Below are positions 3,074 to 21,440 of a stretch of 64,000 nucleotides of DNA, in pieces. The notes under the pieces were generated by a model. It was given only the letters and a program-made list of their open reading frames with translations. It did no database searches and was not told where the DNA came from. This DNA comes from Candidatus Falkowbacteria bacterium (GTDB lineage: Bacteria; Patescibacteriota; Patescibacteriia; Patescibacteriales; UBA12075). The stretch covers positions 5,113 through 69,112 of the forward strand of contig JAZDLN010000033.1 in the NCBI GenBank assembly GCA_043801965.1, in the 5' to 3' direction. A program made the position numbers and the translations under genes. Position 1 is the first letter of the stretch; each line of letters begins with the position of its first letter.

Positions 3074-3148
3074 GTTTTAGCTTATAGCTTTTAGCTTTTA
3101 GGGGGCTATGTTTCCTAAAACCTAAAAGCTAACACCTAAAAGCTATAC
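3074..3148. repeat. intergenic hairpin with tandem-heptamer arms (agctttt / aaaagct)
   Basis: Left arm is ttttagcttatagcttttagcttttagggg (3075-3104). Right arm is cctaaaacctaaaagctaacacctaaaagctata (3114-3147), an imperfect reverse complement. It fills the whole pilB to pilT-like spacer. Confidence 0.75.
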
Positions 3149-3150
3149 AC

Positions 3151-4185
3151 ATGGAAGTAGCATCGATTTTTATCGGTAAAATTTTAGCCGAGGCCGCTAA
3201 TCGTGGAGCCATGAGCCTTCATATATCGATCGGCAGCCAGCCCCGCGTCCGGGTCGATAATGAACTCATGATCCTGGAAAGCGAAAACATCATCGATCAG
3301 GAGATCATGAACGGCATCATCAATTTCGTCTTGAGCGAAGAGGATGTCGCCAGGCTTAACGCGGACAGGGAAATAGTCACCGTCAAGGAATTTTCCGGCA
3401 ATTTGCGTTTTCGGATCAATGCTTTTTACCAGAAGGATCTGCCGTCCTTGTCTTTCCACTTTATCCCCGGCGCGATCTTAAACCTGAAGGAATTGGGACT
3501 ACCGGAAACGGTCAGCTCTTTAACCGAACTCGAATCCGGCTTATTCATAATATCGGGGCCTTTCGGGTCCGGTAAGACCACCACCGCCGCGGCATTTCTT
3601 GAGGAGATCAATAAAAACAGCAATAAATACGTGATTACCCTGGAGAATCCGATAGAATATCTTTTCGTGAACAAAGGGAGCGTTATCGACCAGCGCCAGA
3701 TCGGCCGGGACGTCCATACGATAATAGACGGCCTGGATTACTGCATGAACGAAGACGTGGACGTCCTGTACGTGGCTGAGATCAAAAAAGATTTTAACGC
3801 CGCGATCCCGTTGATCTTAAGCCTCGCCGCCGGCAATTCCTTGGTTCTGTTCGAGATAAACGCCGACAATTCGATCAGCGCCATCGAAAAGATACTGACG
3901 GCCGCCGCCGGCACGTCATCCCGGGAAGCGGCCCGATACAACCTGGCCGACGTGCTTGCCGGCGTGGTTGTCCAGAAATTATTGCCCCAGAGGGGCGGCG
4001 GCTTGGTTCTCGCCACCGAGGTTTTACTGGTAAATTCGGCCGTCCGTTCGCTGATCCGGGAAGGCAAGCTTTTCCAGATCGAAAGCATCATCCAGAATTC
4101 AAGAAGAGAGGGGATGGCCAGCATGAGCAAATCGGTCGAAGACCTTGCCCAATCCGGAAAGATAAACAGGGAAAATATCTACTAA
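3151..4185 (+). CDS. PilT-like hexameric ATPase with degenerate Asp-box and His-box
   Basis: 344 aa. Walker A GPFGSGKTT, Walker B-like DVDVLYVAEI and the PilT signature AVRSLIREGK are present. The Asp box reads ENPIEY (D to N). The His-box region reads AAGNSLVLFEINA where PilT has TGHLVFGTLHT. Confidence 0.8.
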   Translation: MEVASIFIGKILAEAANRGAMSLHISIGSQPRVRVDNELMILESENIIDQEIMNGIINFVLSEEDVARLNADREIVTVKEFSGNLRFRINAFYQKDLPSLSFHFIPGAILNLKELGLPETVSSLTELESGLFIISGPFGSGKTTTAAAFLEEINKNSNKYVITLENPIEYLFVNKGSVIDQRQIGRDVHTIIDGLDYCMNEDVDVLYVAEIKKDFNAAIPLILSLAAGNSLVLFEINADNSISAIEKILTAAAGTSSREAARYNLADVLAGVVVQKLLPQRGGGLVLATEVLLVNSAVRSLIREGKLFQIESIIQNSRREGMASMSKSVEDLAQSGKINRENIY

Positions 4186-4215
4186 CGCGTTTTAAAAAGC
4201 CTAACAACGGTAATT

Positions 4216-5421
4216 ATGTCTAGATTTAAATACCAAGCCACTAATCCCCAAAACCGAAAGATAAGCGGCCTGGTCGAGGCCAGGAACGAGAATGAAGCCA
4301 CCGAGATCCTTAAAGACAAGAATTACGAGATAATTTCGATCGAGGAAAAGCGGTCCAATTTCGGCGGGGGGATAAACAACTTTTTTACCAAGATCGCCGC
4401 CAAGGATCTGGTGGTATTCTCAAGGCAATTCGCGGTGCTTATTTCGGCCAACGTCGCCTTGGTGCAATCTTTAAAGCTTTTAGTCGAGCAGACCAGCAAT
4501 GAAAAGATGAAAATGGCCATATCGGAAATCGCCGATGAGGTGGACGGAGGCACTAAATTGTCAGATTCCCTGGGCCAGCGTTCTCATATCTTCTCGAATT
4601 TTTTCGTTAACGTGGTAAGGTCGGGCGAATCCTCCGGCAAGCTTGACGAGGTTCTTAATTATCTGGCCGACGAGCTCGAAAAAGATTACGACATGACGAG
4701 CAAGATCAAGGGAGCCATGATCTATCCCGCCTTCGTATTTTGCGGTCTGGGCGGCGTGGGAGCGGTCATGATGATATTCGTGGTGCCGAAGCTGACGGCC
4801 ATGATGGCCGAAACGGGCGGAGTTTTGCCGCTGCCGACCCGGATCTTAATGGGTTTTTCCGACGCTATGGTGAATTATTGGTATGTTTTCCTGGCCTTGC
4901 TGATCGGATCGGTGCTCGGATATAAGCAACTGGTAAGACTGCCGGCCGGTCGGAAGATAGTCGATACTCTTTTGCTGCGCGCGCCGATCTTCGGAAAATT
5001 ATTCCAGAGGATTTATCTCGTGCGGTTCACCCGCTCGTTCCAGACCCTGATCGTCGGCGGCGTGGCCATCGGCAAAGCCCTTGATATAACGTCGGAGGTG
5101 GTAAGTAACGCCGTTTATAAAGAACTCATCAGTGAAACCAAGAAAGAGGTGGAGGACGGCAATTCCATATCAAGCGTTTTTGTCCACAGCGACCAGGTCC
5201 CCTCGATGGTGTCGCAAATGCTTAAGATCGGGGAGAAAACCGGAAGACTGGACATGGTCCTGGAACGGATCACGGATTTTTATACCCGGGAAGTTAACAA
5301 TATCATCGCCAACCTCATGACCCTGATGGAGCCTATAATAATGGTCACGATGGGCGTCGGGGTCGGAATAATGGTAGCGGCCATCATCATGCCGATGTAC
5401 CAGATGGCAACAAATATGTAA
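4216..5421 (+). CDS. pilC: type IV pilus platform protein PilC/GspF family
   Basis: 401 aa polytopic membrane protein with a duplicated T2SSF-type domain. It directly follows pilB and the pilT-like gene. Confidence 0.9.
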   Translation: MSRFKYQATNPQNRKISGLVEARNENEATEILKDKNYEIISIEEKRSNFGGGINNFFTKIAAKDLVVFSRQFAVLISANVALVQSLKLLVEQTSNEKMKMAISEIADEVDGGTKLSDSLGQRSHIFSNFFVNVVRSGESSGKLDEVLNYLADELEKDYDMTSKIKGAMIYPAFVFCGLGGVGAVMMIFVVPKLTAMMAETGGVLPLPTRILMGFSDAMVNYWYVFLALLIGSVLGYKQLVRLPAGRKIVDTLLLRAPIFGKLFQRIYLVRFTRSFQTLIVGGVAIGKALDITSEVVSNAVYKELISETKKEVEDGNSISSVFVHSDQVPSMVSQMLKIGEKTGRLDMVLERITDFYTREVNNIIANLMTLMEPIIMVTMGVGVGIMVAAIIMPMYQMATNM

Positions 5422-5433
5422 CTTTGTTTGATT

Positions 5434-5444
5434 TGTGGTATAAT
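5434..5444 (+). promoter_or_regulatory. putative extended -10 promoter element (tgtggTATAAT)
   Basis: TGn-TATAAT at 5436-5444. The same tggtataat string recurs at 8591, 9269 and 31527 upstream of other genes. Confidence 0.4.
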
Positions 5445-5480
5445 AATTTTAGGACGCCAGTTTATTTGTATTATAATTTC

Positions 5481-5590
5481 ATTACAAATACACAAATCAG
5501 AACACAAATTCACAAATATGTCCGTTTTTTATGAATTTATTCAGTAAAGTTGTATTTGTGCATTTGTGATAAAATTTGTGTATTTGTAAT
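5481..5590. repeat. 'empty' copy of the ATTACAAAT...ATTTGTAAT inverted-repeat element (cacaaat k-mer arms)
   Basis: Left arm is attacaaatacacaaatcagaacacaaattcacaaatatg (5481-5520). Right arm is tgtatttgtgcatttgtgataaaatttgtgtatttgtaat (5551-5590). Its termini match the copies at 25287-25768 and 26056-26153. Confidence 0.8.
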
Positions 5591-5599
5591 CATAATATT

Positions 5600-6526
5600 A
5601 TGGATAATAATTTAAAAAAATTACAACTCAAGTTAAAGGCGGCCGCGTTCATGCTGCTCGCGGTCGTGATCGGCGGTTTTCTCGTTTTAAGCCTTTTTTA
5701 CCGGGAGAAAGCGGCGTTGGCCCTGCAGGGTAATTACGACAAGGACGCGTCCACCCAGAATCAGCTGACATTGACCGAGTGGAATTACCTGGATGAGGAT
5801 TTTTTGAAAAAAGAAGGGGATACCTGGGCCGGACCGGGAGCGCTCAACATGGGAGATCACGCCATTACCGGACTTAACACGAACTTGTCCGGTCCCGCCG
5901 CGACGGACGCGGCCAATGTCGCTTACGTCAACCAGGCGATCGCGGCCGGTCCGACTTCCGGCGGAGGGGAAATATACACGGTCTGGGGCAATAATACCTG
6001 CGGCGGCGGCTCGACCCTGCTTTACGGCGGTATCGCTTTAAGCGCGCCTTATAATACCCCGGGAGGCGGCAGTAATCCGGTCTGCATGGAAGGCGGCGAT
6101 CCGGGGGCGGGTTTTACGGCGATCTATGCCGACAAGATGTACCCGGTCGTAACCGGCGCTGACGCCAACCTGCCCACGAGCTCGATCGATCCGGGAAGCA
6201 CTATCGCCGGCGACCGGATCATCCGTTGCGCGGTCTGCCATTATCCGGCCGGAACCTGCTATACGAATTACGGCTCCTGGGACTGCAACGGCGGCAACGG
6301 CGGATTTTCGCCCGTTTACGACGGCTACGTGCTGGGCAGTTACAGTACGAGCGCCGGGACCTACGTGAATTCGACTAAAAGGGCCTGCGTCAACCGGGTA
6401 TTTAGCGGGGCGGCGGCCGGAGGGAATATGGGGGCGATGTGGTTCGGCACGCGCATCGATAATAATTACGGTCTCGCGAGCTACACCACCGGCGCTTTCG
6501 TGAAGTGTTCGGTCTGCTGTAATTGA
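5600..6526 (+). CDS. membrane-anchored Cys-rich protein: tail-fibre-like N-terminal motif plus collagen-IV NC1 (C4)-like double subdomain (paralogue 1)
   Basis: The track ORF starts at GTG 5576 inside the repeat arm; ATG 5600 (MDNNLKKLQ) is more likely. It has one TM helix and the motif GDTWAG...LNMGDHAITGL...DAANVAYVN. Two homologous Cys halves end in IIRCAVCHYPA and FVKCSVCCN*. Confidence 0.6.
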   Translation: MDNNLKKLQLKLKAAAFMLLAVVIGGFLVLSLFYREKAALALQGNYDKDASTQNQLTLTEWNYLDEDFLKKEGDTWAGPGALNMGDHAITGLNTNLSGPAATDAANVAYVNQAIAAGPTSGGGEIYTVWGNNTCGGGSTLLYGGIALSAPYNTPGGGSNPVCMEGGDPGAGFTAIYADKMYPVVTGADANLPTSSIDPGSTIAGDRIIRCAVCHYPAGTCYTNYGSWDCNGGNGGFSPVYDGYVLGSYSTSAGTYVNSTKRACVNRVFSGAAAGGNMGAMWFGTRIDNNYGLASYTTGAFVKCSVCCN

Positions 6527-6541
6527 TTTCGAGTGAATATT

Positions 6542-6613: not shown

Positions 6614-7468
6614 ATGCCTAAAAATAAAGTGAATTCAATATTCTTGGTTTGGTTGATGATTTTTATAATGTCCGGTATTTTAACGCTGGGCGTAGTGGCG
6701 CTTAGGCCGGTTTTGGCCGTATTCGGCGATTACGACCGCGCCGAGGCTTCATTATCGATCGACGACTGGAATTTCCTTAATGATGATTTTGTTCTAAGGG
6801 ACGGGGATACGATGGCCGGGGACCTGAACATGAACAATGTCGGAATAAGCAACCTGGCCGTTATACCGGCGGACGAGACCAGCGCGGCCAGTGCCGGTTA
6901 CGTTAATTCAAGGATAAACTCTTCGGCGGGCGGAACCACTTACATAAATTGGGGCCGGGGGGATTGCGCGGCCGGCGACACCGTCCTCTACGGCGGTTTC
7001 GGTTTCGGCGCGACCTATAGCGTCATGTCGGGCGGGGACAACGATATCTGCGTCCAGCTGCCGGCCGACGCGGAATTCGCGCATACCGGAGCAATAGCCG
7101 ATAGGATGTATCCGTCGATGTCCGGAGGATCTCCCTGGATGCCGGCCGGATATGATCCGGCCAGATCTTTCGTCAGGTGCGCGGTCTGCTACCGGAACCA
7201 GAGCGCCTGCTATACCGGTTACGGGACGCATAACTGCAATAAGGGAAATTTTACCGATAAGGCTTACGACGGTTATGTCGCTGCCGGCATAAACGAGAGC
7301 CATACGCTTTCGCGGGAAAGGAACTGCGTGAACCGCAATTTCGACAACACCGGCGGAGCCGCCACTACCTGGGGGGCGGCCTGGTACGGTTCCCGGATAG
7401 AAAATAATTTCGGACAGGCCGGCTACGACAATCTTGTTTTTATCAGGTGCGCCGTCTGCTGCAACTAG
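6614..7468 (+). CDS. membrane-anchored Cys-rich protein, NC1 (C4)-like double subdomain (paralogue 2)
   Basis: 284 aa with the same architecture as 5600..6526. Motif GDTMAGDLNMNNVGISNL...SAASAGYVN. The halves end in FVRCAVCYRN and FIRCAVCCN*. Ten Cys sit at aligned positions. Confidence 0.6.
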   Translation: MPKNKVNSIFLVWLMIFIMSGILTLGVVALRPVLAVFGDYDRAEASLSIDDWNFLNDDFVLRDGDTMAGDLNMNNVGISNLAVIPADETSAASAGYVNSRINSSAGGTTYINWGRGDCAAGDTVLYGGFGFGATYSVMSGGDNDICVQLPADAEFAHTGAIADRMYPSMSGGSPWMPAGYDPARSFVRCAVCYRNQSACYTGYGTHNCNKGNFTDKAYDGYVAAGINESHTLSRERNCVNRNFDNTGGAATTWGAAWYGSRIENNFGQAGYDNLVFIRCAVCCN

Positions 7469-7526: not shown

Positions 7527-7577
7527 ATCGTTCCGCGGATTTAACGCGGATTTAAACGCCGATAGGACGCGGAACGA
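7527..7577. repeat. 10-bp stem hairpin enclosing a perfect tandem 11-mer (cgcggatttaa x2)
   Basis: Stem tcgttccgcg (7528-7537) pairs with cgcggaacga (7568-7577). The tandem cgcggatttaa copies lie at 7534-7544 and 7545-7555. The reverse complement of this k-mer recurs at 14549-14570. Confidence 0.7.
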
Positions 7578-7591: not shown

Positions 7592-8533
7592 ATGAACAAA
7601 AAAGCCATAATCATAATAGTATTATTAGCAATCGCGGCGGTAGCGGGCGGGTACTTTTTGGCGAGATCAAGAAGCGGCGGCGGTTTTTGGGGTCCGGGCG
7701 AGGAGCCTAAAGATATTGCCGGACTGGAGCGATCCGTTTTCGAGGGCGAGCTCGCCGGCATAAGCGGCGCGGCCATAAACTTAAAAGTCGCCAAAGAAAC
7801 AGGCGCTATACCCCTGCCGGACAAGGATGAGGAATTTGAAATATTTAAAATAGCGGTCGGCAAAAACGCGGAGATCGTCAAGCAGACGGACGCGGTAAAA
7901 TCCAAAGAACGGTTTATCGCGGAGCAGGATAAATTTAAAGTAGAATTCTCGGTAATGACCAAAGAAGGAAAAAGCACGGCCTGGCTCGAGGCGCCCGACT
8001 GGCAGGTATCCGAAAATATCGCTTTAAACGGCCTTAAAAACGGCGATAAATTAAGAGTTTACGCCTACCGGGACAAGGATAATGATTTTCACGCGCGTAA
8101 AATCATCGCCTTAAGGGCGGAAAATCCCGTAGAGGAATCCGGCGGCGGGCAAACGCCCGGCGCGCGCGTAGAGATCTCGGGCGTTATCGAAGAAGCGCGA
8201 AGCGGCGCGATCAGGATAAAAGAGATCGGACCGACCGGCCCCACGGGCCAAAGCCTGGAAATCGCGATCACCGGAGAAACCAAGATCATAAAAAAAACCG
8301 CGAAAACCGCCGCGCAGTTTAAAAAAGAACAGGCGGAATTCAGCGCGAAAATAGCCGCCGGAGGGGCGAGGGGAGAAGAGGTGTCTAACCTGGAGGCGCC
8401 CGACTGGTACGTTATAGCGGAAGCCGGTGTTAATAATCTTACCATAGGCCAGGAGGTAAATATCTACGGCGTAAAGGATAATAATAAAAACAATCAAATA
8501 TTAGCTGAAAAAATAGAATTTACGGCAAAATAA
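7592..8533 (+). CDS. secreted/anchored protein with an internal domain duplication
   Basis: 313 aa with an N-terminal hydrophobic signal/anchor (IIIIVLLAIAAVAGGYFLA). There are two repeats of roughly 85 aa, each with LEAPDW(Q/Y)V...(G)(D/Q)(K/E)(L/V)(R/N)(V/I)Y(A/G)...(I/E). OB-fold-like (DUF5666-type) is a guess. Confidence 0.45.
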   Translation: MNKKAIIIIVLLAIAAVAGGYFLARSRSGGGFWGPGEEPKDIAGLERSVFEGELAGISGAAINLKVAKETGAIPLPDKDEEFEIFKIAVGKNAEIVKQTDAVKSKERFIAEQDKFKVEFSVMTKEGKSTAWLEAPDWQVSENIALNGLKNGDKLRVYAYRDKDNDFHARKIIALRAENPVEESGGGQTPGARVEISGVIEEARSGAIRIKEIGPTGPTGQSLEIAITGETKIIKKTAKTAAQFKKEQAEFSAKIAAGGARGEEVSNLEAPDWYVIAEAGVNNLTIGQEVNIYGVKDNNKNNQILAEKIEFTAK

Positions 8534-8570
8534 AAGCAATTACTATTATTAATTCAGCCACTGATATTTT

Positions 8571-8599
8571 TTGTCATTTGTGGAAAAATATGGTATAAT
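8571..8599 (+). promoter_or_regulatory. putative sigma70-type promoter of the major pilin gene
   Basis: TTGTCA (8571-8576), a 17-nt spacer, then TATAAT (8594-8599) with TG at 8591-8592. The pilA SD is ggaggtg at 8719-8725. Confidence 0.55.
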
Positions 8600-8729
8600 T
8601 GTGGATAAGTGCGTAATAGATTATATGGGTGCGTCGATCCCATTATCAACAAATATTATAAACCCGTACTCGTTAATTTAATTTCTAGAATTAAGTTTGC
8701 GAGCGCGAACAATAGATCGGAGGTGAAAT

Positions 8730-9212
8730 ATGAGAAATAACAAAGGTTTTACATTAATCGAATTATTGGTCGTAATCGCGATCATCGGCTTACTCTCATC
8801 TTTAGCGGTGGTGTCTTTGAATAATGCCCGGCAGAAAGCCCGGGACGCCCGCATAAAGAGCGACCTTAAGCAGGTCAGTACCGCCCTGGAGTTAGCTTAC
8901 AGCGAAGACGAAGAATACCCGGTGGCTGATGGTGCTTGCGGTGGTGGAACAGGCCGGATAATGGTACCGAATCTTATAGGCACCGCAGATCCCATGTGTT
9001 GCGGCAATGGCAACCCGATTATATCTTTAACGGGTGAAAGCGTGTTGCAGGCTCTGCCTTGCCACCCGGTTTCCGGTTCAAGCTATTATTTTGAAGGTAC
9101 GGCCGCCGGCGACAGCTACTGCATTGCCGGAGAGTTGTATAACGGTGATTTTTTTGCCTGCTCTAACGGCTCCTGCTTCGATAACGGAGCTAATAACTGC
9201 ACGGAACTATAA
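8730..9212 (+). CDS. pilA: type IVa major pilin (prepilin with class III signal)
   Basis: MRNNKG/FTLIELLVVIAIIGLL has G-1, F+1 and E+5. The NARQKARDA helix continues from it. The C-terminal head contains 8 Cys. Confidence 0.9.
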   Translation: MRNNKGFTLIELLVVIAIIGLLSSLAVVSLNNARQKARDARIKSDLKQVSTALELAYSEDEEYPVADGACGGGTGRIMVPNLIGTADPMCCGNGNPIISLTGESVLQALPCHPVSGSSYYFEGTAAGDSYCIAGELYNGDFFACSNGSCFDNGANNCTEL

Positions 9213-9234
9213 TCCGAGATCATATAAGAATAAT

Positions 9235-9269
9235 AATACCTTGCGGCTTTACCGCGGGGTATTATTTTT
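9235..9269 (+). terminator. rho-independent terminator after pilA
   Basis: aatacc..gcgg (9235-9246) pairs with ccgc..ggtatt (9252-9263), followed by a T-run at 9265-9269. Confidence 0.6.
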
Positions 9270-9277
9270 GGTATAAT
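9269..9277 (+). promoter_or_regulatory. putative extended -10 element (tggTATAAT)
   Basis: TGn-TATAAT at 9269-9277, about 85 nt upstream of ATG 9362. Confidence 0.4.
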
Positions 9278-9361
9278 ATATGTAGTTGTCATGTAAATAA
9301 TTTTTTGTTATTCATGATAATAATGTAAAAATGTAAAATTGTTTAAATATATTATAAAAAC

Positions 9362-9844
9362 ATGGAAATAAAAAGACAAATGGACCCGAAAAAGAAGAAA
9401 ATCATCCAAGTCGCCGCCGGCGTCCTGGTTTTTCTCTTGGTGGCCGTTTTTACGGGTTTTATAGTGAATTACGCGCAAAAGAGCGCCCGCGATACGCAGA
9501 GATTGTCCGATATAGCGGGTTTGCGGTTCGATCTCGAACTCTTTTATCATAAATACGATAAATTCCCCCTGGCGGTTCTAAAGGCGAAAAAAGAGGATAA
9601 AGTAGACTGTTCGGATAATCTGTGCCTGGAATACGTTCCGACCGATCCTTTAAGCGGCGCGGCCTACGTTTATACGCCCTGCGCCGATCCGGAGAACGTT
9701 AATTGCGGCGAGAATATCGGCCGCCCCCTAAGCTATATGCTGATCTATGCCTTGGAGACCGACAGCATCGGTCTTTTTCCGGGCAACCACTTTGCCTCCC
9801 CCAAGGGCGTTTGCGCCGATCCGAGCTGTTTATCGGTCAGATAA
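9362..9844 (+). CDS. pilin-like protein with a non-cleavable-looking N-terminal anchor
   Basis: 160 aa. It has a TM helix, then YAQKSARDTQRLSDI (pilin alpha1-C-like) and a GspG/pilin-type motif YVPTDPLSGAAYVY, with 6 Cys. The G/F-T-L-x-E prepilin cleavage motif is absent. Confidence 0.55.
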   Translation: MEIKRQMDPKKKKIIQVAAGVLVFLLVAVFTGFIVNYAQKSARDTQRLSDIAGLRFDLELFYHKYDKFPLAVLKAKKEDKVDCSDNLCLEYVPTDPLSGAAYVYTPCADPENVNCGENIGRPLSYMLIYALETDSIGLFPGNHFASPKGVCADPSCLSVR

Positions 9845-9911
9845 ATAAGTGAAATAGGTAAAATACGATAAATAAAAAAGCCGTTTTTTATTTTACTTAT
9901 TTCACTTATTT
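9843..9911. repeat. 22-bp stem intergenic hairpin (aaataagtgaaata arms)
   Basis: aaataagtgaaataggtaaaat (9843-9864) pairs with attttacttatttcacttattt (9890-9911), 21 of 22 complementary. The loop is 25 nt. A terminator role for the 9362 gene is possible. Confidence 0.75.
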
Positions 9912-9926
9912 TGTTTTCTTTAGCTT

Positions 9927-13017: not shown

Positions 13018-13045
13018 TCCGCTCCCGGGATAATGAAGAGAATAT

Positions 13046-13795: not shown

Positions 13796-13796
13796 T

Positions 13797-14528: not shown

Positions 14529-14548
14529 CCATTTTTTTGTTATCAGCG

Positions 14549-14615
14549 TAAATCCGCGCAGTAATCCGCGCCTGCCAGCGGGCAGGCAATATCCGCGGAA
14601 GACAATGGATTTCGG
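14549..14615. repeat. modular hairpin: (t)aaatccgcg k-mer arm plus GC core hairpin gcctgccagcgggcaggc plus degenerate complementary arm
   Basis: taaatccgcg lies at 14549-14558 and taatccgcg at 14562-14570. The core 7-bp stem is at 14570-14587. The right side is atatccgcgga...ggatttcgg (to 14615). Confidence 0.65.
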
Positions 14616-14669
14616 TAAATCATGAAATAATCACGGAAGGAAAAAAAATATTATTTTATATTGATATAT

Positions 14670-15320
14670 ATGTGCAACGCTAATTGCGTCATATTCGGCG
14701 TAAAAAATTTAAATGAATCCGAGATAGGCGGGAAAAAGGTGATCGAGGTCGGAGCTTTGGACGTAAACGGCAGCCTCAGGCCCATAGTGGAAAAATTAAA
14801 CCCCGCGGAATATATCGGAGTGGACATAGAGCGCGGCTCGGGCGTCGACCGGATCTGCCGGGCGGAAGACCTGGTCAAAGAATTCGGACCGGAAAGTTTT
14901 GACGCGGTTATTACCAACGAGCTTTTGGAACACGTCAAAGACTGGCGGGCCGCCATAGCCAATATAAAAAATATCTGCCGCCCCGGCGGGGTTATTCTTA
15001 TTACCACCCGGTCCGGCGGCTTTCCTTATCACGCTTATCCGCACGATTATTGGCGTTATGAGCCGGAAGACATGAAAAAAATTTTTGCTGACTGCGAGAT
15101 CATCGCCCTGGAAAGGGATCCTGAGGCGCCGGGGGTATTTGTTAAAATCAGGAAACCGGATGATTTCGTCGCCAACAGTCTTGACGATATCGACCTCTAC
15201 TCGATGGTGTCCGGCCGGAGAAAAAAAACAGTCGAACCGGGAGATTTTTATCGCCCGCGTTATTGTCAGACGATAATAAAAGAAAAATTTAAAAATATTT
15301 TAAAGTATTTGCTTAAATAA
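14670..15320 (+). CDS. class I SAM-dependent methyltransferase
   Basis: The track ORF starts at TTG 14661; an in-frame ATG lies at 14670. Motifs VIEVGALDVNGS, FDAVITNELLEHV and PGGVILITT. Confidence 0.65.
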   Translation: MCNANCVIFGVKNLNESEIGGKKVIEVGALDVNGSLRPIVEKLNPAEYIGVDIERGSGVDRICRAEDLVKEFGPESFDAVITNELLEHVKDWRAAIANIKNICRPGGVILITTRSGGFPYHAYPHDYWRYEPEDMKKIFADCEIIALERDPEAPGVFVKIRKPDDFVANSLDDIDLYSMVSGRRKKTVEPGDFYRPRYCQTIIKEKFKNILKYLLK

Positions 15321-16762
15321 TGCTCTTCAACTCCATACAATTTTTGATATTTTTCGGCGCCGTGTACGGTTTATACCTCTTGGTCCATAAATTTTTTTCG
15401 CACAAAGCGGAAAACCGGCTCTTACTGGCCGCCAGCTACGTATTTTACGCGGCCTGGGATTGGCGTTTTTTATCCTTGATTTTTACGTCCGCGTTGATTA
15501 ATTTTTATTGTGGAGGGAAAATTTTTTCCGGGCAGGACGAGCGGATAAAAAAGCGGTATTTAATTTATGCCGTATCCGCCAACCTGCTGATTCTGGGTTT
15601 TTTCAAATATTTCGATTTTTTCGCGGCCAATCTATCGGCGCCGCTCTCCGCGCTCGGTCTTGATCCGGGCATCGGCGCGCTCGGCATTATCCTGCCGCTC
15701 GGTATTTCGTTCTATACTTTTCAGGCCATGACCTACGCGGTCGATATTTATCGCGGAGAAATAAAACCAACCGGCAATTTTTTCGATTTCGCGCTTTTTG
15801 TCTCTTTCTTTCCTTTGGTCCTCGCCGGCCCCATCGAGCGGGCCAAGAACCTGTTGCCGCAGATTACCGCCCAGAGAACTTTAAGCCGGGATAAGTTTTA
15901 CGAGGGATGTTTTTTGATATTTTGGGGACTCGTCCAAAAGACGGTGATCGCCGACAATCTCGGCGCCAGACTGGTCGATCCGGTTTTTAACGGCGGCGGC
16001 GCAACGGGTATCCATGTGCTGATCGCGGTTTACGCATTTGCCATCCAGATCTATTGCGATTTCGCCGGTTATTCCAATATCGCCCGGGGGCTGGCTAAAT
16101 GCCTGGGCATAGAACTTACGGTAAATTTTAACCTGCCTTATTTCGCCGCCAATCCGAAGGACTTCTGGCGCCGTTGGCACATAAGTCTCTCGTCCTGGTT
16201 TAAGGATTACGTTTATATACCCCTGGGAGGGAACAGGCGCTCCCGGGCGCGGACAACAGTCAATCTTCTTATTACTATGGTGCTATGCGGTTTTTGGCAC
16301 GGCGCGGCCTGGACTTTTTTAGTTTGGGGGGCTTTTCACGGGATATTACTGGCGGTTTACAGGCTTTTTTCTTCTATTTCCGGAAAATTACCGGCTTTAG
16401 GCAATCTCTTGGCGTCAAAGTTTTTTTACGCCGTCCGGGTGTTTTTGTTCTTTAACGTTATTTGCCTGGGCTGGGTTATTTTCCGCGCGTCCTCCCTTAA
16501 AGAGGCCTGGGAACTGGGAAGAAAATTATTTATCGGTTGGGATTTATTCCTGACCCCGCATCTGGCGATCAGTCTTTATTATTTCGCGTTCTTTTCGGCC
16601 TGTCTTTTTGTCGTTGAATTTTTCCAGTACCGCTGCCATGATCTTTTGTATTTTTACCGCGCGCGTCCGGCCGTCAGGATAATATTTTATCTTGTCTGTT
16701 TTTATTTGATTATTATATATGGATGGAGTGAAACCCAAGAATTCATTTATTTCCAGTTTTAA
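15320..16762 (+). CDS. MBOAT family membrane-bound O-acyltransferase (AlgI/DltB/PatA-like)
   Basis: 480 aa polytopic protein. It has the MBOAT signature DFWRRWHISLSSWFKDYVYIPLGGNR and a second His in GFWHGAAW. Its start overlaps the previous stop (taATG). Confidence 0.9.
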   Translation: MLFNSIQFLIFFGAVYGLYLLVHKFFSHKAENRLLLAASYVFYAAWDWRFLSLIFTSALINFYCGGKIFSGQDERIKKRYLIYAVSANLLILGFFKYFDFFAANLSAPLSALGLDPGIGALGIILPLGISFYTFQAMTYAVDIYRGEIKPTGNFFDFALFVSFFPLVLAGPIERAKNLLPQITAQRTLSRDKFYEGCFLIFWGLVQKTVIADNLGARLVDPVFNGGGATGIHVLIAVYAFAIQIYCDFAGYSNIARGLAKCLGIELTVNFNLPYFAANPKDFWRRWHISLSSWFKDYVYIPLGGNRRSRARTTVNLLITMVLCGFWHGAAWTFLVWGAFHGILLAVYRLFSSISGKLPALGNLLASKFFYAVRVFLFFNVICLGWVIFRASSLKEAWELGRKLFIGWDLFLTPHLAISLYYFAFFSACLFVVEFFQYRCHDLLYFYRARPAVRIIFYLVCFYLIIIYGWSETQEFIYFQF

Positions 16763-17756: not shown

Positions 17757-17771
17757 ACTTGTATTTTATAT

Positions 17772-18620
17772 ATGAATAAATGCGTTGTTTGCGGAGTGCA
17801 AAATAATAATAAAGCGATTTTCCGGGAAGACGGCATCGATATATTGCGCTGCCTGAATTGCGGCCATGTTTATTCTTCTTGCGACGCCCCGGAGGACGGT
17901 GCCGGTTATTTCGGCGCCGATATCGGCCTCCAGGATCATTTCTGGTGGCGCGAAGCGCATGAACGGATGTACCGGGATTTCGGCCGCCGTTTTCTCACGG
18001 GCAGAAGCGGGCGTTTACTCGACGTCGGCTGCGGCCTCGGGTATTTCGTGAAATTCGTTACCGAGCGGCCGGGATGGAAAGCGTATGGTTCCGAAATATC
18101 CGTTCCAGCGGCGGATTTCGCGCGAAAAGAATTGGGACTGGCCAATATAATCGCCGGAGAAGTCCAAAGCGCCGGGTTTGAAAAAAAATCATTCGACATA
18201 ATCACGCTTTGGGACGTGATCGAGCACGTTCCCGATCCCCATCCTCTTCTTAAATTTCTTAATTCGATCCTGAAAGACGACGGCGTTTTATTCATGCATA
18301 CGCCGAACATAAAAATCCAATTGCCGAAAGCCCGGATAAAAAAATGGCTTAGAGGCGAGACGCCGGGAGCGCATTATCTTGAAGCCAAAGATCATGTCAA
18401 TATTTATTCCGCCGGGACACTAAGCGCGATTTTGACCGCGAACGGCTATAAGGATATAAAATTCATCCATCTTCATCCGATCCAGAGTATCTCCGGAAGC
18501 CGGAGCGGTTTTTTAAGGGTCATAAAGAACGGTTGGTTTTACGCGGCGAAGCTGATCGGGTTTTTTACGGGAAATAGGGTTAATATGGATAATTTGTTCG
18601 TGGCGGCAAGAAAGTTTTAG
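17772..18620 (+). CDS. class I SAM methyltransferase with N-terminal zinc ribbon
   Basis: CVVCG...CLNCG, then LLDVGCGLGYF, FDIITLWDVIEHV and DDGVLFMHTP. Confidence 0.75.
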   Translation: MNKCVVCGVQNNNKAIFREDGIDILRCLNCGHVYSSCDAPEDGAGYFGADIGLQDHFWWREAHERMYRDFGRRFLTGRSGRLLDVGCGLGYFVKFVTERPGWKAYGSEISVPAADFARKELGLANIIAGEVQSAGFEKKSFDIITLWDVIEHVPDPHPLLKFLNSILKDDGVLFMHTPNIKIQLPKARIKKWLRGETPGAHYLEAKDHVNIYSAGTLSAILTANGYKDIKFIHLHPIQSISGSRSGFLRVIKNGWFYAAKLIGFFTGNRVNMDNLFVAARKF

Positions 18621-18686
18621 TATCTTGTATTTAGTATTTAGTATTTAGCAGGTCGGCAAAATACTAAATACAAGATACTAAATACT
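18619..18686. repeat. intergenic hairpin with tandem-heptamer arms (tatttag / ctaaata)
   Basis: agtatcttgtatttagtat (18619-18637) is the exact reverse complement of atactaaatacaagatact (18661-18679). The additional tatttag repeats allow register-shifted pairing. Confidence 0.8.
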
Positions 18687-18697
18687 GAGAAAAAAAT

Positions 18698-19486
18698 ATG
18701 TCATATATTATTTTAATTTTGATTTTTATTTTCGGTACCATGATCGGTTCTTTTTTAAATTGCCTGATTTGGCGCCTCCATAAGAAAGAAACGATTTTAG
18801 GCCGGTCTTATTGTCCTCATTGCCGGCAAAAGATCGCCTGGTACGACAATATCCCGATTTTAAGTTTTATGGTATTGCGCGGCCGCTGTCGTCATTGCCG
18901 CCAATCTATTTCCTGGCAATACCCAGTCGTTGAATTGATAACCGGCATTTTGTTCGTCATGTCTTTTAATGTAAATTTTCAATTTTCAGCTTACAGTCAA
19001 TATTCAATATCGGACGTTTTGTCTTTGATAAAATTTTGGTTTATATTGAGCGTCATGATCATAGTGTTCATTTATGATTTAAGATGGTATTTGATCCTGG
19101 ACATCGTAACTTTACCGGCTTGCGCTTTTGTTTTTTTGATCAATTTAGCGCTGGGAATGAACTGGCAGAATTTGCTTATTTCTGGTATAATAGGAGGTGG
19201 CTTCTTCCTTCTCCAATTTGCGGTTTCCAGGGGGCGCTGGATCGGCGGCGGAGATATCCGTTTGGGTCTTTTGATGGGGCTTTCGCTCGGCTGGCCGGGA
19301 ATCATAACCTCCCTGACCCTAGCCTACTTTATCGGCGCTTTTATCGGTCTGGGACTTATCGCGGCTGGAAAGAAGAAACTCGGTTCAAAGGTGCCGATGG
19401 GCGTGTTTTTGTCCGTCGCGGCCATAATCACTCTGTTTTGGGGAGAGGGAATAGTGGAATGGTATCTGGAAACGTTTTTATTTTAA
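18698..19486 (+). CDS. pilD: prepilin peptidase / N-methyltransferase (A24 family)
   Basis: 262 aa. It has the N-terminal CPHCRQ...CRHCRQ zinc motif and WYDNIPILSF. The catalytic Asp regions are IYDLRWYLILD and GGGDIRLGLLMG. Confidence 0.9.
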   Translation: MSYIILILIFIFGTMIGSFLNCLIWRLHKKETILGRSYCPHCRQKIAWYDNIPILSFMVLRGRCRHCRQSISWQYPVVELITGILFVMSFNVNFQFSAYSQYSISDVLSLIKFWFILSVMIIVFIYDLRWYLILDIVTLPACAFVFLINLALGMNWQNLLISGIIGGGFFLLQFAVSRGRWIGGGDIRLGLLMGLSLGWPGIITSLTLAYFIGAFIGLGLIAAGKKKLGSKVPMGVFLSVAAIITLFWGEGIVEWYLETFLF

Positions 19487-19487
19487 A

Positions 19488-19554
19488 AGTATATGGTATT
19501 TAGCGGCCGGTCACTGCTGTTTTGCTAAATACTTAATACTAAATACTTGATACT
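19488..19554. repeat. intergenic hairpin, same tatttag/ctaaata k-mer family
   Basis: gtatttagc (19496-19504) pairs with gctaaatac (19524-19532). The right arm continues as ttaatactaaatacttgatact. The loop is ggccggtcactgctgtttt. Confidence 0.65.
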
Positions 19555-19559
19555 ACTTG

Positions 19560-20150
19560 ATGAAAATCCATAAAAATTCTAAATTTTTCAATTGCGGCGG
19601 TTACACCCTGGTCGAACTTCTGGTTACAGCTTCGATCATGGCTTTGATGTCCGCCATGGCGGTGGCGAATTATAAAGATTACGGCCATTCCCGGAAATTG
19701 CAGATGGCCGCGCAGGTTCTGGCGAGCGATATCCGGATGGCGGCAAGCTATTCCTTGTCCCAAAAAAAATTCACCACCCTTCCGCCGCGGGGAGGATGGG
19801 GGATATATGCCCGCCGGCAAAATCCGAATAATATTTTCTATATTCTGTTCGCGGATTCGGTCGTCCCCGCGGATCACCGTTACGACGGCGCTGAATTTTT
19901 CCGCCAAATTGACCTTGGGGACGGAGTATTGATAGACAATATAATATTTTACAATGGCCTGGGAGCGGGCTCAAACGTGAATTCCGCCACGATAACGTTC
20001 GAACCGCCCCATCCGGTCGTCTGGATCTGCGATCAGTCCGGAGCGTGCAACGCCGCTAATCGCGGCAGCGAACTCGAAATCGTTTTATCCTTGGGTTCCG
20101 ACACCAGAACCGTAAAAGTTAACGCCTCGGGCATGGTTGATATAAATTAG
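19560..20150 (+). CDS. minor pilin / pseudopilin (FimT/GspH-like)
   Basis: Class III signal ...FFNCGG/YTLVELLVTASIMALM with E+5. ATG 19560 lies one codon after the track's TTG 19557. Confidence 0.75.
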   Translation: MKIHKNSKFFNCGGYTLVELLVTASIMALMSAMAVANYKDYGHSRKLQMAAQVLASDIRMAASYSLSQKKFTTLPPRGGWGIYARRQNPNNIFYILFADSVVPADHRYDGAEFFRQIDLGDGVLIDNIIFYNGLGAGSNVNSATITFEPPHPVVWICDQSGACNAANRGSELEIVLSLGSDTRTVKVNASGMVDIN

Positions 20151-20189
20151 GGCGGAGGCGGAAGACGGCCCTGTGTCAAAAATATAAAT

Positions 20190-20744
20190 ATGCTAGCGAA
20201 TGATTTGATTAAAAACAAAAGCGGCATGAGCATCGCCGAAGCGGTCATGGCGATCTTTGTCATAACGATCGGCCTTTTGGGCGTGTCTTCCCTGGCGATC
20301 CAGAATATCCAGATCAAGGGCGTAAACCGCAATTATCTGATCGCTTCGATGCTGGCCCAGGAAGGGATAGAATTGACCCGCAACATCCGCGATCAGAACT
20401 GGCTTAATATCCAAAACGACCCCACTGACCCTTCTTTGGCCTGGGACGACTGGATAACGGACGGTTCGGTCCCGCCCAATATGACGACCTTCGCGATCGA
20501 CCATACCAACACTTCCGCCAACCCGCCGGATCAGACCGTCAATAGTATCGCCGACGCCGGCGCCTTGCTTTACGTTAATGATACCAACCATTTTTATACC
20601 TATAATCCGGCCGGAGCGACCGCGAGCATTTTTCGCCGTCTGGTCTCGGTCCTTGATTATGGCGACTATTTGATCGTAACCGTCAATGTGGCGTGGCCCA
20701 AGGGGGACTACGTGGTGGAAACGTACCTCTATAATTGGAGATAA
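20190..20744 (+). CDS. minor pilin (PilV-like)
   Basis: ...KNKSG/MSIAEAVMAIFVITIGLLGV has G-1 and E+5. 184 aa. Confidence 0.7.
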   Translation: MLANDLIKNKSGMSIAEAVMAIFVITIGLLGVSSLAIQNIQIKGVNRNYLIASMLAQEGIELTRNIRDQNWLNIQNDPTDPSLAWDDWITDGSVPPNMTTFAIDHTNTSANPPDQTVNSIADAGALLYVNDTNHFYTYNPAGATASIFRRLVSVLDYGDYLIVTVNVAWPKGDYVVETYLYNWR

Positions 20745-20771
20745 ATTTAAGATCATAGCTTGACTGATATT

Positions 20772-21350
20772 ATGCTTAAAATCATAAATCTTAAAAATCA
20801 AGGAGGTTTGACCCTTATCGAGATCGTCGTGGCGACCGCTTTGTTTTCCATGGTGTCTTACGCCGCCGTGGCCACTTTTCAGGGCGTCATGAAAAGCCAG
20901 CGTTCCACGGTAATCTCCCAGAACGTGCAGGAATCCATGCGGTACGCCCTGGAGATCATGGGCAAGGAGATGCGGATGGCGCAAAAAAGAATATCGGGCG
21001 ATTGTATACTGTCCAACAATAACCGCATTTATGACACGAATGACGTTTCCGGCGTCGGCGATTCTTTGAGCTTCATCAACAGCCGGAAGGCCTGCGTCAC
21101 CTATTCCCTGGTCGGAGGACGATTAAGGATAAATCGTTTCGGCGAACCGTCTTCGTATTATATAACTCCGGATGACATCGTGATAAACGATCTGTCTTTC
21201 CGGGTGGTGGACGAGGGAGCGAACACAGTGCCGCCATCGGTCCATCCCCGCGTGACCATTACCCTGGAAGCGTCCATGGCCGGCGGCGCCGGCGTGCCCG
21301 CGGAGAATGTCCGGCTGGAGACCACTATTTCGGCCAGAAGCTACCAGTAG
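20772..21350 (+). CDS. minor pilin (PilW-like)
   Basis: MLKIINLKNQGG/LTLIEIVVATALFSMV. The track starts at TTG 20760; an in-frame ATG lies at 20772. Confidence 0.7.
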   Translation: MLKIINLKNQGGLTLIEIVVATALFSMVSYAAVATFQGVMKSQRSTVISQNVQESMRYALEIMGKEMRMAQKRISGDCILSNNNRIYDTNDVSGVGDSLSFINSRKACVTYSLVGGRLRINRFGEPSSYYITPDDIVINDLSFRVVDEGANTVPPSVHPRVTITLEASMAGGAGVPAENVRLETTISARSYQ

Positions 21351-21353
21351 TTT

Positions 21354-21440
21354 CAGTATTTAGTATCTAGTATTAAGTATTAAGCCTACGATTATCATGC
21401 CTGCGGCCGCTTGATACTTAATACTATATACTATAGTATT
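21354..21440. repeat. intergenic hairpin, tatttag/tattaag k-mer arms
   Basis: agtattaagtat (21369-21380) is the exact reverse complement of atacttaatact (21414-21425). The flanking taagc/gcttg extends the stem. The loop is ctacgattatcatgcctgcggcc. Confidence 0.7.

Follow-up and report, generated by a model that had tools for sequence, protein, structure and literature searches.

Intervening sequences of bacterial rRNA carry terminal inverted repeats that form a 28-bp stem, with an S23p open reading frame (ORF) in the loop, and are excised by RNase III (PMC4990558). They leave at the RNA level through RNase III, without religation (PMC4990558; PMC11270868). A second precedent is the genome of Geobacter metallireducens, in which 53 intergenic sites each pair two tandem arrays of octa-, nona- or heptanucleotides on opposite strands (Aklujkar et al. 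2009, PMC2700814, Figs S3-S5, Table S4), the units GTTGCTYN, TCTCCGTS(Y) and MTYCTGA being present in 3-5 copies. These pairs, classes 1-3, were labelled predicted global regulator binding sites and left unexplained, and IS110-family elements insert between the class-1 pairs (PMC2700814). The sites were described as motifs only and read as IHF/HU-type, with no ORF link, mobility or RNA structure proposed.

Other repeats offer partial parallels. The Correia/nemis MITEs of Neisseria are palindromic, ~100-150 bp long, with terminal inverted repeats and many intergenic copies; they are transcribed with neighbouring genes, form long hairpins and are cleaved by RNase III, and Correia elements have fixed terminal inverted repeat sequences, duplicate a TA target and lack tandem-repeat arms. 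Integron attC sites, imperfectly palindromic and 57-141 nt long, vary in sequence but keep their structure, and they bound small promoterless co-directional ORFs. Heptamer tandem repeats constitute the STRR of cyanobacteria. In Beggiatoaceae, Cyanobacteria and Bacteroidetes, TAACTGA direct repeats have a patchy distribution that suggests horizontal transfer; they often stop 1 nt short of a start codon, lie in spacers devoid of Shine-Dalgarno motifs, place stops in all frames and are almost always direct, with one inverted case among 170 sets (MacGregor 2015, PMC4679880).

The window considered here is a stretch of 64,000 nucleotides from a Candidatus Falkowbacteria contig (JAZDLN010000033.1). 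Within 1-32 kb, seven same-strand spacers form hairpins whose arms are tandem repeats and which are much more stable than shuffled controls (ViennaRNA MFE per spacer against 200 dinucleotide shuffles; z from -3.4 to -6.2, Table 1). With cut-offs of ≥20 nt for arm length, ≥80% for complementarity and ≤150 nt for the loop, this region holds five inverted repeats, four of them with tandem arms; 30 dinucleotide shuffles of it gave means of 0.13 and 0.00, respectively. Spacers 50 nt or longer number 19 in 1-31 kb; approximately 10 of them have clear inverted tandem arms, and three more have partial or orphan arrays. TRF detects period-7 arrays in both arms at 3070/3114, 18616/18659 and 21355/21421, and also at 19528. 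The hairpins match no Rfam family.

A preliminary description, drawn from the letters alone, had placed such hairpins in a pilus operon. Its sequences and coordinates are as described, and Pfam confirms its assignments of pilB, pilT-like, methyltransferase, pilD and N-methyl pilin genes. Folding better than shuffled controls holds at 3074, 9845, 18621, 19487 and 21351, is weak at 14529 and is absent at 28512, where the orphan heptamer arm noted earlier is indeed present. The hairpins at 5470 and 26056 were missing from that list, and the hairpin-bearing region goes past 21440, also including 5470-5601, 22694-23207 and 25287-26153. Arms were said to be often of period 7, which applies to 18 of 24 distinct tandem-arm hairpins (window plus protein-selected loci) and not to the one at 9843. 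The stem at 18619-18686 is perfect, as claimed, over 24 nt rather than 19 bp, and the proposed multiplicity of pairing registers is evident, for example, in three registers at 18616-18686.

Table 1. Tandem-arm hairpins, arrays and cassettes in the window, with the folding z-score of the spacer or array.
Feature	Position	Strand	Folded spacer	z	Arms and structure
ORF-less hairpin, pilB / pilT-like spacer	3071..3148	+	3074-3150	-4.3	TTAGCTT x4.6, CCTAAAA x4.6; 32 nt, 84%
ORF-less hairpin, CACAAAT/ATTTGTG alphabet	5470..5601	+	5422-5575	-3.4	49 nt, 82%
Array, membership uncertain	7534..7555	+		-0.8	CGCGGATTTAA x2 in loop of local 9-bp stem
Hairpin, period 9/14	9843..9926	+	9845-9926	-5.0	AAATAAGTG/AAATAAGTGAAATA; 23 nt, 96%
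Weak degenerate member	14549..14615	+	14529-14660	-1.8	TAAATCCGCG x2, GC core hairpin, decayed partner arm
ORF-less hairpin, methyltransferase gene / pilD	18616..18686	+	18621-18697	-6.2	TTTAGTA x4.7, AAATACT x4; 24 nt, 100%
Asymmetric hairpin, pilD / minor pilin gene	19488..19555	+	19487-19556	-3.4	GTATTWAG alphabet
ORF-less hairpin, minor pilin gene / 408-aa gene	21355..21440	+	21351-21466	-4.1	GTATTWAG alphabet; 25 nt, 92%
Complete cassette	22694..23207	+			5' arm 22694-22769, ORF 22770-23156, 3' arm 23157-23207
Second cassette	25287..25771	+			CACAAAT arm A, GxxExxY pseudogene 25326-25730, ATTTGTG arm A' 25731-25771
ORF-less hairpin, gatC-gatA spacer	26056..26153	+	26057-26151	-5.4	CACAAAT alphabet; 38 nt, 82%
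Orphan 5'-type arm (TRF), partner arm absent	28510..28539	+	28512-28640	+0.2	GTATAAG GTATCAA GTGTAAA GTATAAA; GTATTWAG alphabet; no hairpin

The hairpins fit closely between genes. The first arm triplet at 3071 is the pilB stop codon TAG, a TAG stop codon likewise lies within the first arm unit at 18616, and the hairpin at 26056 occupies the gatC-gatA spacer entirely, from stop codon to start codon. At 5470, the 3' arm reaches the probable ATG (5600) of the downstream gene, and a TGGTATAAT extended -10 motif lies upstream in the same spacer. The 7534 array is the reverse complement of that at 14549. The three GTATTWAG hairpins of the window have arms in common and different cores; thus, they are not simple copies of each other.

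Two GxxExxY (PD-(D/E)XK) genes of the window lie within arms of this design. In the complete cassette, TGCGAATCTACGAA repeats (5') and TTCGTAGAATTCGCA repeats (3') form a 24-nt inverted repeat (92%) whose arms are separated by 467 nt, around an intact GxxExxY gene (TIGR04256, 1.1e-21), and the whole fits flush between the stop codon of the preceding gene and the ATG of ligA. In the second, arm A begins within the last ligA codons, arm A' abuts the gatC ATG, and the pseudogene has an in-frame stop after 25538. Heptamer arrays also occur within the ligA coding sequence (25043-25070). The nuclease core of GxxExxY is intact, with E30, D69, K81, Q93 and Y97 conserved at 99-100% in 235 homologues. 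[quoted passage not shown] Inverted tandem arms surround 6/6 PF05635 ORFs and 11/11 independent GxxExxY ORFs among the loci collected here. To our knowledge, neither protein has been demonstrated to act as a transposase or a homing enzyme, and PF05635 has no nuclease fold.

In CPR genomes, the arm alphabet tracks the GxxExxY clade, not the host locus. Clade 1 (49-74% amino acid identity), with TGCGAAT/TACGAAT arms, occupies ligA-gatC in L081 and L082, lies beside pheS in L088 and is found near clpB in L089 (Roizmanbacteria). Clade 2, with CACAAAT/TACAAAT arms, is represented by L095, L096 and L098 (Komeilibacteria, polA-holA). The ligA-gatC spacer contains clade 1 in certain genomes and clade 2 in others. 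The GTATTWAG alphabet occurs in at least 120 metagenome contigs; its arrays have an inverted partner in 28 of 105 assessable cases versus 3 in the control, one configuration is common to 25 of those 28, and its long loops carry PF05635 ORFs (L132, L187; E 1e-34 to 1e-36). Each element lineage has its own alphabet, and hence the sites differ; this linkage to ORFs concerns alphabets other than TTAGCTT, AAATAAGTG and TAAATCCGCG. The two ORF families can be flanked by near-alike alphabets, AGGATTT beside PF05635 in L148 and AAGGATT beside GxxExxY in L120, which leaves a strict protein-to-heptamer cognate code unproven.

Compared with rRNA intervening sequences (Coxiella, Leptospira and Salmonella 23S/16S rRNA; CPR rRNA insertions), the elements share a stem of ~20-30 bp from terminal inverted repeats and a loop that is empty, as in short intervening sequences, or contains a small PF05635 ORF; intervening sequences are likewise regarded as selfish and horizontally spread. 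However, the hairpins are placed between cistrons that encode proteins instead of within rRNA helices, the window ORF is GxxExxY and not PF05635, and RNase III processing of the hairpins is putative. We know of no report of tandem-heptamer arms with lineage-specific alphabets in rRNA intervening sequences. The G. metallireducens sites are similar in having several alphabets in one genome, A/B starts ~70-115 nt apart and positions between consecutive genes, even in operons (proB-proA, pdhA-pdhB). STRR and TAACTGA repeats are also intergenic tandem heptamers, but with one dominant alphabet per genome and no hairpin or ORF link described. Unlike Correia/nemis elements, the hairpins have tandem-heptamer arms, unrelated cores, no target-site duplication found, and ORF-bearing relatives without a known transposase. 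A reading as integron attC sites was rejected because the genes separated here are core genes (pilB, pilT, ligA, gatC, gatA), the ORF has an arm on either side, and no integrase gene was recognised among those window genes that were examined.

We consider it probable, at approximately 60%, that these hairpins represent a type of small palindromic insertion element and are the MITE-like members, lacking an ORF, of a selfish class of hairpin cassettes; they are possibly deletion derivatives of cassettes resembling intervening sequences. Within an operon the elements spread to adjacent spacers, and they also move from one genome to another. Copies lacking an ORF are found in duplicate inside operons, in both orientations: L082 has two hairpins ~96% identical in separate spacers, with 37/37 pairs kept in both, three compensatory double changes and no disruptive ones, and in L047 the same element lies on either side of pilC in opposite orientations. 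Between the window and L095, the gatC-gatA hairpin is identical at 94 of 95 nt (98.9%), loop included, and GxxExxY at 93.6%, versus 76.5% for ligA, 85% for gatC and 76% for gatA; this island of ~99% identity could reflect strong constraint instead of recent transfer. Presence varies at the orthologous gatC-gatA spacer: that of L096 is 17 nt long and has no hairpin, that of L082 has two extra small ORFs, and that of L081 has GTGATTG-type arms. A search for a target-site duplication or defined insertion footprint identified none. The earlier interpretation is partly supported. Among the options it offered, a relic of a hairpin-propagating mobile element has the best support: arms enclose GxxExxY, alphabets travel with ORF clades, and ORF-less copies are duplicated. 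An RNA-processing element is plausible by analogy with the rRNA intervening sequences that RNase III excises (PMC4990558).

It is conceivable, although unlikely, that host selection maintains the hairpins as RNA elements between cistrons, whose role in processing or stability sets pilus and gat expression ratios, the ORFs being later loop passengers. Stems much more stable than shuffles and exact intercistronic placement in a genome nearly devoid of Shine-Dalgarno motifs would suit such a role, as would the compensatory changes in the two L082 copies and the 99% conservation of the gatC-gatA hairpin against 76-85% in its neighbours. Adjacent hairpins of one alphabet can also bracket a gene, in the manner of rRNA processing stems: the 3' arm at 19488 pairs with 18618-18650 across pilD (33 nt, 91%), and the 5' arm at 26056 with 25731-25768 across gatC (38 nt, 89%). 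However, the loop is conserved and not the stem alone, and relatives' orthologous spacers are empty or have other alphabets or ORFs. Moreover, the same element is found both along and against the direction of transcription, alphabets follow ORF clades through unrelated operons, and the excess of G:U over A:C mismatches on the sense strand, which would indicate selection at the RNA level, is not significant (20:14 in 22 hairpins, p=0.20; 8:3 in the window hairpins).

It is improbable that the heptamers are DNA binding arrays of a nucleoid-associated or global regulator, inverted through dimer or multimer binding and not RNA folding, as proposed for the class 1-3 sites (PMC2700814). Regular short-period inverted pairs at variable distance and the lack of a strand-specific RNA signal agree with that precedent. 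Nevertheless, at least five alphabets coexist within 30 kb and would demand an equal number of regulators from a CPR genome of very small size, the 7-bp period is out of DNA helix phase, the arms lie within operons and not at promoters, and neither compensatory changes nor co-inheritance of arms and ORFs is predicted.

We give equally little credence to neutral replication slippage with quasipalindrome correction by template switching, through which short terminator-like palindromes would grow in situ, immobile and functionless. It would produce tandem arms with several registers and unequal copy number (~1.5 units in the 5' arm and ~4 in the 3' arm at 19488), the orphan at 28510 and the arrays inside ligA, and concerted changes of two arms are compatible with arm-to-arm templating. 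It does not account for one alphabet and ORF clade in unrelated loci and phylum-level lineages, for copies at separate sites, in both orientations, that are nearly identical and have identical cores, or for the identity island between diverged genomes.

That the hairpins are ordinary intrinsic terminators or attenuators, the latter also suggested earlier, is very improbable: a TTTTGTTTTCTTT T-run follows 9843-9911 and TTTT follows the inner core 19501-19519, the only part of these hairpins called by a terminator scan, which called no tandem-arm stem, but six of the seven hairpins have no T-tract, as the preliminary description had observed for most, the AT-rich stems of 24-38 bp are far longer than window terminators (e.g., 9232-9266 and 30423-30444), and their positions fall within single functional units (pilB-pilT, gatC-gatA). 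The hairpins are not terminators, with one possible exception, as that at 9843 could also end transcription of the second pilin gene.

The elements are predicted to be co-transcribed with the operon, and their 20-38-bp stem is probably cut by RNase III, as the stems of rRNA intervening sequences are; no rnc gene is present among the window proteins scanned. Cleavage would divide the polycistronic transcript within the spacer, or remove the cassette, and leave the flanking cistrons unharmed. Because a 7-nt period is not divisible by 3, the stop triplet of a unit (TAG in TATTTAG, TAA in CTAAATA) would appear in all three frames within 21 nt. The array might also offer repeated binding sites to a multimeric protein, possibly the one encoded in the loop, and arm complementarity may be maintained by selection or by arm-to-arm templating.

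The preliminary description knew of no family with such a design. This needs amending in that paired tandem sites themselves are known from G. metallireducens. A link between paired tandem arms and GxxExxY/PF05635 cassettes was not found in the searchable literature.

The first half of the window carries a set of palindromic units, located between consecutive genes, which are best explained as selfish elements resembling both the intervening sequences (IVS) of rRNA genes and MITEs. The hairpin sequences of the preliminary description are present as described, and the feature is real and non-random. When every spacer was folded against 200 dinucleotide shuffles, five of the spacers that it had listed fell far below the shuffled controls (z -3.4 to -6.2), and so did two that it had not, the spacer following pilC and that between gatC and gatA. 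Among its other sites, the one at 14549 is weak (14529-14660, z -1.8), and the one at 28511 is an orphan array, whose spacer (28512-28640) folds no better than chance against the same shuffles. The elements measure 68-132 nt, and their inverted arms are 23-49 nt long, are complementary at 82-100% of positions and can pair in several alternative registers. Period-7 arrays are called on the arms by TRF, and the period is 7 in 18 of 24 distinct tandem-arm hairpins from the window and the protein-selected loci. Between 1 and 32 kb, there are five long inverted repeats with a loop of at most 150 nt, four of which have tandem arms (0.13 and 0.00, respectively, in shuffled sequence).

Coordinates of genes, spacers, cassette ORFs and terminators in the studied region, with the folding score of each spacer
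Feature	Position	Strand	z
pilB	1331-3073	+	
Spacer	3074-3150		-4.3
pilT-like	3151-4185	+	
pilC	4216-5421	+	
Spacer	5422-5575		-3.4
Pilins	8730, 9362	+	
Intrinsic terminator	9232-9266		
Spacer	9845-9926		-5.0
Wzy/TPR protein	9927-12272	+	
Methyltransferase	12244-15320	+	
MBOAT	15320-16762	+	
Methyltransferase	17772-18620	+	
Spacer	18621-18697		-6.2
pilD	18698-19486	+	
Spacer	19487-19556		-3.4
Minor pilins	19557-21350	+	
Spacer	21351-21466		-4.1
GxxExxY ORF of first cassette (real start 22770)	22695-23156		
ligA	23208-25307	+	
GxxExxY pseudogene of second cassette	25326-25730		
gatC	25772-26056	+	
Spacer	26057-26151		-5.4
gatA	26152-27612	+	
dsbA-like	27729-28511	+	
Intrinsic terminator	30423-30444		

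The window belongs to a MAG of Candidatus Falkowbacteria (CPR/Patescibacteria), and the GxxExxY protein encoded at 22770-23156 has a 100% identical counterpart in NCBI under that name. Bases 1-45951 are transcribed from the + strand. Tandem-arm hairpins are absent from the second half of the window (32000-64000), which holds glycosyltransferase and methyltransferase genes with very short spacers and a GC content of approx. 40%, compared with approx. 48% in the first half; a Fic/DOC family gene (30527-31462) separates the housekeeping block from the glycosylation block. An 18-nt inverted repeat with arms 437 nt apart (33232-33249, AAGGTTTTGAGTTTGGGG; 33687-33704, CCCCAAATTCCAAACCTT) and an array of CCAAATAACAAACC x2 (33675-33702) are found there, both in the N-terminal region of ORF 33082-34290, which has no domain; the ORF may be mis-called or contain an insertion. 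Arrays in the first half include CGCGGATTTAA x2 at 7534-7555, the reverse complement of TAAATCCGCG x2 located 7 kb downstream at 14549-14580; together, they bracket the pilin/Wzy/methyltransferase block (7592-14528). The C-terminal part of the ligA coding sequence contains a perfect AAAACAG x4 array (25043-25070) and a GGATATC x3.9 array (24848-24874), so that heptamer arrays are not confined to spacers.

Two elements of the window enclose an ORF. The first encodes a GxxExxY protein of the PD-(D/E)XK family (PF13366); in reverse complement, the 76 nt upstream of the ORF (tgcgaatctacgaattatatgcgaatctacaaacatacgaa) correspond to the 51 nt downstream (ttcgcatgttcgtagaattcgcataattcgtagatttgca), and the cassette is flush with the upstream stop codon on one side and with the ligA ATG on the other. 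Arms overlap start codons and give rise to spurious N-terminal extensions, as in ORF 22695. The second encloses a GxxExxY pseudogene with an in-frame stop, with CACAAAT and ATTTGTG arms on either side; its 5' arm starts inside ligA, and the last seven ligA codons are thus arm sequence. The hairpin at 5470-5601 has the same CACAAAT alphabet (the set of k-mer units that make up the arms). The PD-(D/E)XK core (E30, D69, K81, plus Q93 and Y97) is 99-100% conserved in 235 GxxExxY homologues. Around gatC the arms follow the order A, A', A, A', and the gene is bracketed by an inverted repeat of 38 nt (25731-25768 / 26056-26093, 89%); pilD is likewise bracketed by one of 33 nt (18618-18650 / 19523-19555, 91%).

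Comparison with loci from other genomes and metagenomes (designated L) indicates to what the alphabets belong. Homologues of the first GxxExxY gene (clade 1, 49-74% identity), which in the window lies upstream of ligA, are found between ligA and gatC in syntenic Falkowbacteria (L081, L082-L087), adjoining pheS in L088 and near clpB in Roizmanbacteria (L089), and every clade 1 gene located is preceded by TGCGAAT/TACGAAT units and followed by ATTCGCA/ATTCGTA units. The pseudogene also has homologues (clade 2, 58-89% identity), situated between ligA and gatC in L095 and L096 and between polA and holA in L098 (Komeilibacteria), all of which have CACAAAT/TACAAAT and ATTTGTG/ATTTGTA arms. Since the arms are constant per clade across loci, the alphabet belongs to the element lineage and not to the host or the site; the single ligA-gatC spacer hosts different element lineages in different genomes. 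[quoted passage not shown] ORF-bearing versions with the same arms as ORF-less elements exist. The elements are palindromic units with lineage-specific tandem-heptamer arms and an optional GxxExxY or PF05635 ORF, and they occur with their arms in unrelated loci and lineages; the same hairpin design is present in the unrelated MAGs L047, L054, L058 and L015. An exact search with PilB found no entry in the collection searched, and the nearest PilB relatives among GTDB genomes are Parcubacteria-type MAGs with only approx. 50% identity, so that orthologous pilus spacers cannot be aligned at the nucleotide level; the 80 loci of these relatives served as the background set for hairpin scans, and tblastn with the window GxxExxY protein found no match in them.

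The GTATTWAG alphabet, shared by the three pilD-region hairpins and the orphan array at 28510, leads to the second protein family. Arrays of at least three units are found in at least 120 metagenome contigs, and an inverted partner lies within 900 nt in 28 of the 105 assessable arrays, compared with three in the control; 25 of the 28 have the 5'-GTATTWAG...CTWAATAC-3' configuration, as in the window. Cases with a short loop resemble the window hairpins, and those with a long loop enclose PF05635 ORFs (L132, L187). Such an ORF is also found within AGGATTT arms (L148), and further examples are present in L165, L054 and L200; the matches in L132, L187 and L148 have E-values of 1e-34 to 1e-39. The loop ORFs inside the window are GxxExxY and not PF05635. 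A candidate association of GTATTWAG arms with GxxExxY genes was rejected, as neither of the two such genes found among the 120 pattern-selected loci adjoins an array. A tRNA-like remnant (approx. 28618-28745) resembles the adjacent tRNA-Ser(GGA) (29019-29106); it is broken by a GC-rich hairpin (28684-28729), is not called by ARAGORN and is immediately followed by an 86-aa GIY-YIG ORF (28746-29006), listed as 28641-29006, probably with too early a start.

Several observations bear on mobility. The elements occupy stop-to-start spacers and recur in neighbouring ones. L082 contains two hairpins, approx. 96% identical, in different minor-pilin spacers; arms and 25-nt core are common to both. They differ by substitution at eight positions, of which six make up three compensatory pairs and a seventh produces G:U pairing, and neither copy has lost any of the 37 pairs. 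Slid-partner controls, which are the informative ones, yield zero compensatory pairs; shuffling has by construction little power in a two-sequence covariation test (72/500). In L047, one element is found on both sides of pilC in opposite orientations. The hairpin copies of the window have arms in common, but not cores. Between the window and the related genome of L095, ligA, gatC and gatA are 76.5%, 85% and 76% identical, respectively, whereas the gatC-gatA hairpin is identical at 94 of 95 positions, loop included, and the GxxExxY cassette at approx. 94%. At the orthologous gatC-gatA position, L096 has a 17-nt spacer without a hairpin, L082 has two additional small ORFs, and L081 has a hairpin of the GTGATTG alphabet. 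This pattern of duplication, orientation, identity and occupancy agrees better with an insertion element that spreads horizontally than with a conserved regulatory structure of the host, although the island of identity shared with L095 could also reflect strong constraint. As to the proposed insertion, no consistent direct repeat that would represent a target-site duplication was found at the element boundaries, which coincide with stop and start codons, and the proteins of the ORF-bearing versions (GxxExxY, PF05635) are not known transposases.

The different alphabets of L082 and L084 at one spacer were considered as de novo turnover and ruled out as clean evidence of it, because the difference sits at a recombination boundary: around 830-980, an identity of 99.8% over 7.9 kb drops to 89% exactly from the spacer hairpin. 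Hairpins may mark recombination boundaries. In these CPR genomes, the intercistronic spacers serve generally as a landing zone for small genes. DUF5674 and a 108-aa ORF lie between gatC and gatA, and DUF559 lies beside ligA and dsbA, in L081-L087; in L088, direct TGCGAA arms flank a 122-aa ORF. Small DUF559 (Vsr-like) ORFs of L081 have a conserved 3' flank (1662-1700, 7361-7400), cacacccctaaatcccctctYaagaggggacttga. In the window, a C-rich/G-rich hairpin (31555-31650, CCCCTCC.../...GGGGAGG, z -3.0) sits in the leader of the glycosyltransferase gene at 31657, after a TGGTATAAT promoter motif. This hairpin and the DUF559 flanks may represent another cassette type.

At the RNA level, the elements are likely co-transcribed with their operons, because most spacers contain no strong promoter or terminator; extended -10 motifs are found upstream of the hairpin following pilC. 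Selection on the stems in mRNA should favour G:U over A:C among sense-strand transition mismatches. The G:U to A:C ratio is 8:3 for the window and 20:14 over 22 hairpins that lie between co-directional ORFs (p = 0.20), and the excess is thus not significant. With 20 bp or more, the stems could be RNase III substrates and, by analogy, may allow excision from the transcript; no RNase III gene was found among the window proteins scanned, for which a 64-kb window is uninformative. Intrinsic termination was rejected for six of the seven hairpins. The scan, which finds genuine terminators elsewhere in the window, calls no tandem-arm stem, and the earlier remark that most hairpins lack a clean T-run holds, as one occurs only downstream of 9843-9911, where the stem is AT-rich. 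Among Rfam models, only a tRNA reaches threshold in the window, and nothing relevant appears at gathering or permissive thresholds; the best hairpin matches are miRNA precursors (38 bits, where the gathering scores are 83-100). A reading as integron attC sites was rejected on context.

[quoted passage not shown] CPR rRNA genes carry PF05635 ORFs as well as short ORF-less insertions (PMC11270868). As in the IVS, the inverted repeats at the two ends pair into a long stem around the rest of the element, and related elements with the window's alphabet have a PF05635 loop ORF (L132, L187), whereas the window loops have GxxExxY instead. However, IVS reside in helices 9, 25 or 45 of 23S rRNA or in 16S rRNA. 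All the elements lie between protein-coding genes and hence outside the location that defines an IVS, and neither Rfam nor Pfam detects rRNA in the window. Like MITEs, the elements are small, have terminal inverted repeats, lack a transposase and have nearly identical copies at more than one site and in both orientations (L082, L047). The closest architectural precedent is found in Geobacter metallireducens, where 24, 21 and 8 intergenic pairs of opposite-strand tandem repeats (octa-, nona- and heptanucleotides) separate consecutive genes, among them proB from proA and pdhA from pdhB; taken to be sites for global regulators, they have never been accounted for (PMC2700814). Both sets consist of paired arrays of three to five 7-9-nt units on opposite strands within one intergenic region, with several classes per genome; because the unit sequences differ from those of Geobacter classes 1-3, the design is the same, but not the sequence family. 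TAACTGA repeats have a heptamer period, lie flush with start codons and lack Shine-Dalgarno (SD) motifs (PMC4679880); these properties are common to our elements, but TAACTGA repeats are direct and only the elements are inverted. In the literature searched on GxxExxY, PF13366 and PF05635, no link to tandem-heptamer inverted arms in intercistronic spacers was found, and the connection of the elements with these two enigmatic small-protein families is apparently undescribed and was unexpected.

We propose that the elements are selfish insertions, of which the window hairpins would be ORF-less, MITE-like members. By analogy with the rRNA IVS, the co-transcribed long stems would probably be cut by RNase III, which could make an insertion between cistrons tolerable. 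SD motifs precede approx. 7 of the 60 window genes, and approx. 53 have no SD-like motif upstream; translation initiation here must therefore be largely SD-independent, which bears on the tolerance of hairpins that abut start codons. The 7-nt period places any stop triplet of a unit in all three frames within 21 nt, as is evident from TATTTAG and CTAAATA, the tandem arm could act as a site array for a multimeric protein, and arm complementarity might be kept by selection or by arm-to-arm templating. A more far-reaching and rather unlikely possibility is that the heptamers are a recognition code for the loop proteins (pentameric Avd-like PF05635 or the GxxExxY nuclease), that heptamers and proteins together form an undescribed mobile class homing to operon stop-start junctions and rRNA loops, and that a mechanism is shared with rRNA IVS, cyanobacterial STRR, TAACTGA arrays and the Geobacter paired sites. 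Were this so, binding should be alphabet specific, with the GxxExxY protein (22770-23156) preferring TGCGAATCTACGAA repeats over CACAAAT and the PF05635 protein recognizing GTATTAAG.

The rRNA IVS, the STRR and TAACTGA heptamer arrays and the Geobacter paired sites have gone without explanation for decades. The presence of GxxExxY and PF05635 in heptamer-armed loops provides a testable model in which these proteins are the cargo or the agents of a palindromic mobile cassette, whose hairpins would colonise intercistronic spacers and rRNA alike. The model suggests that the rRNA IVS is one niche of a wider element class, and it offers an explanation for the intergenic heptamer arrays of Geobacter, and possibly of cyanobacteria and Beggiatoaceae; as Geobacter can be cultivated, it is testable there. 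For annotation, arms that overlap stop and start codons alter called N-termini and rewrite C-termini, as in ligA. In the tiny, SD-poor genomes of CPR bacteria, operon mRNAs may routinely be cut at selfish hairpins.
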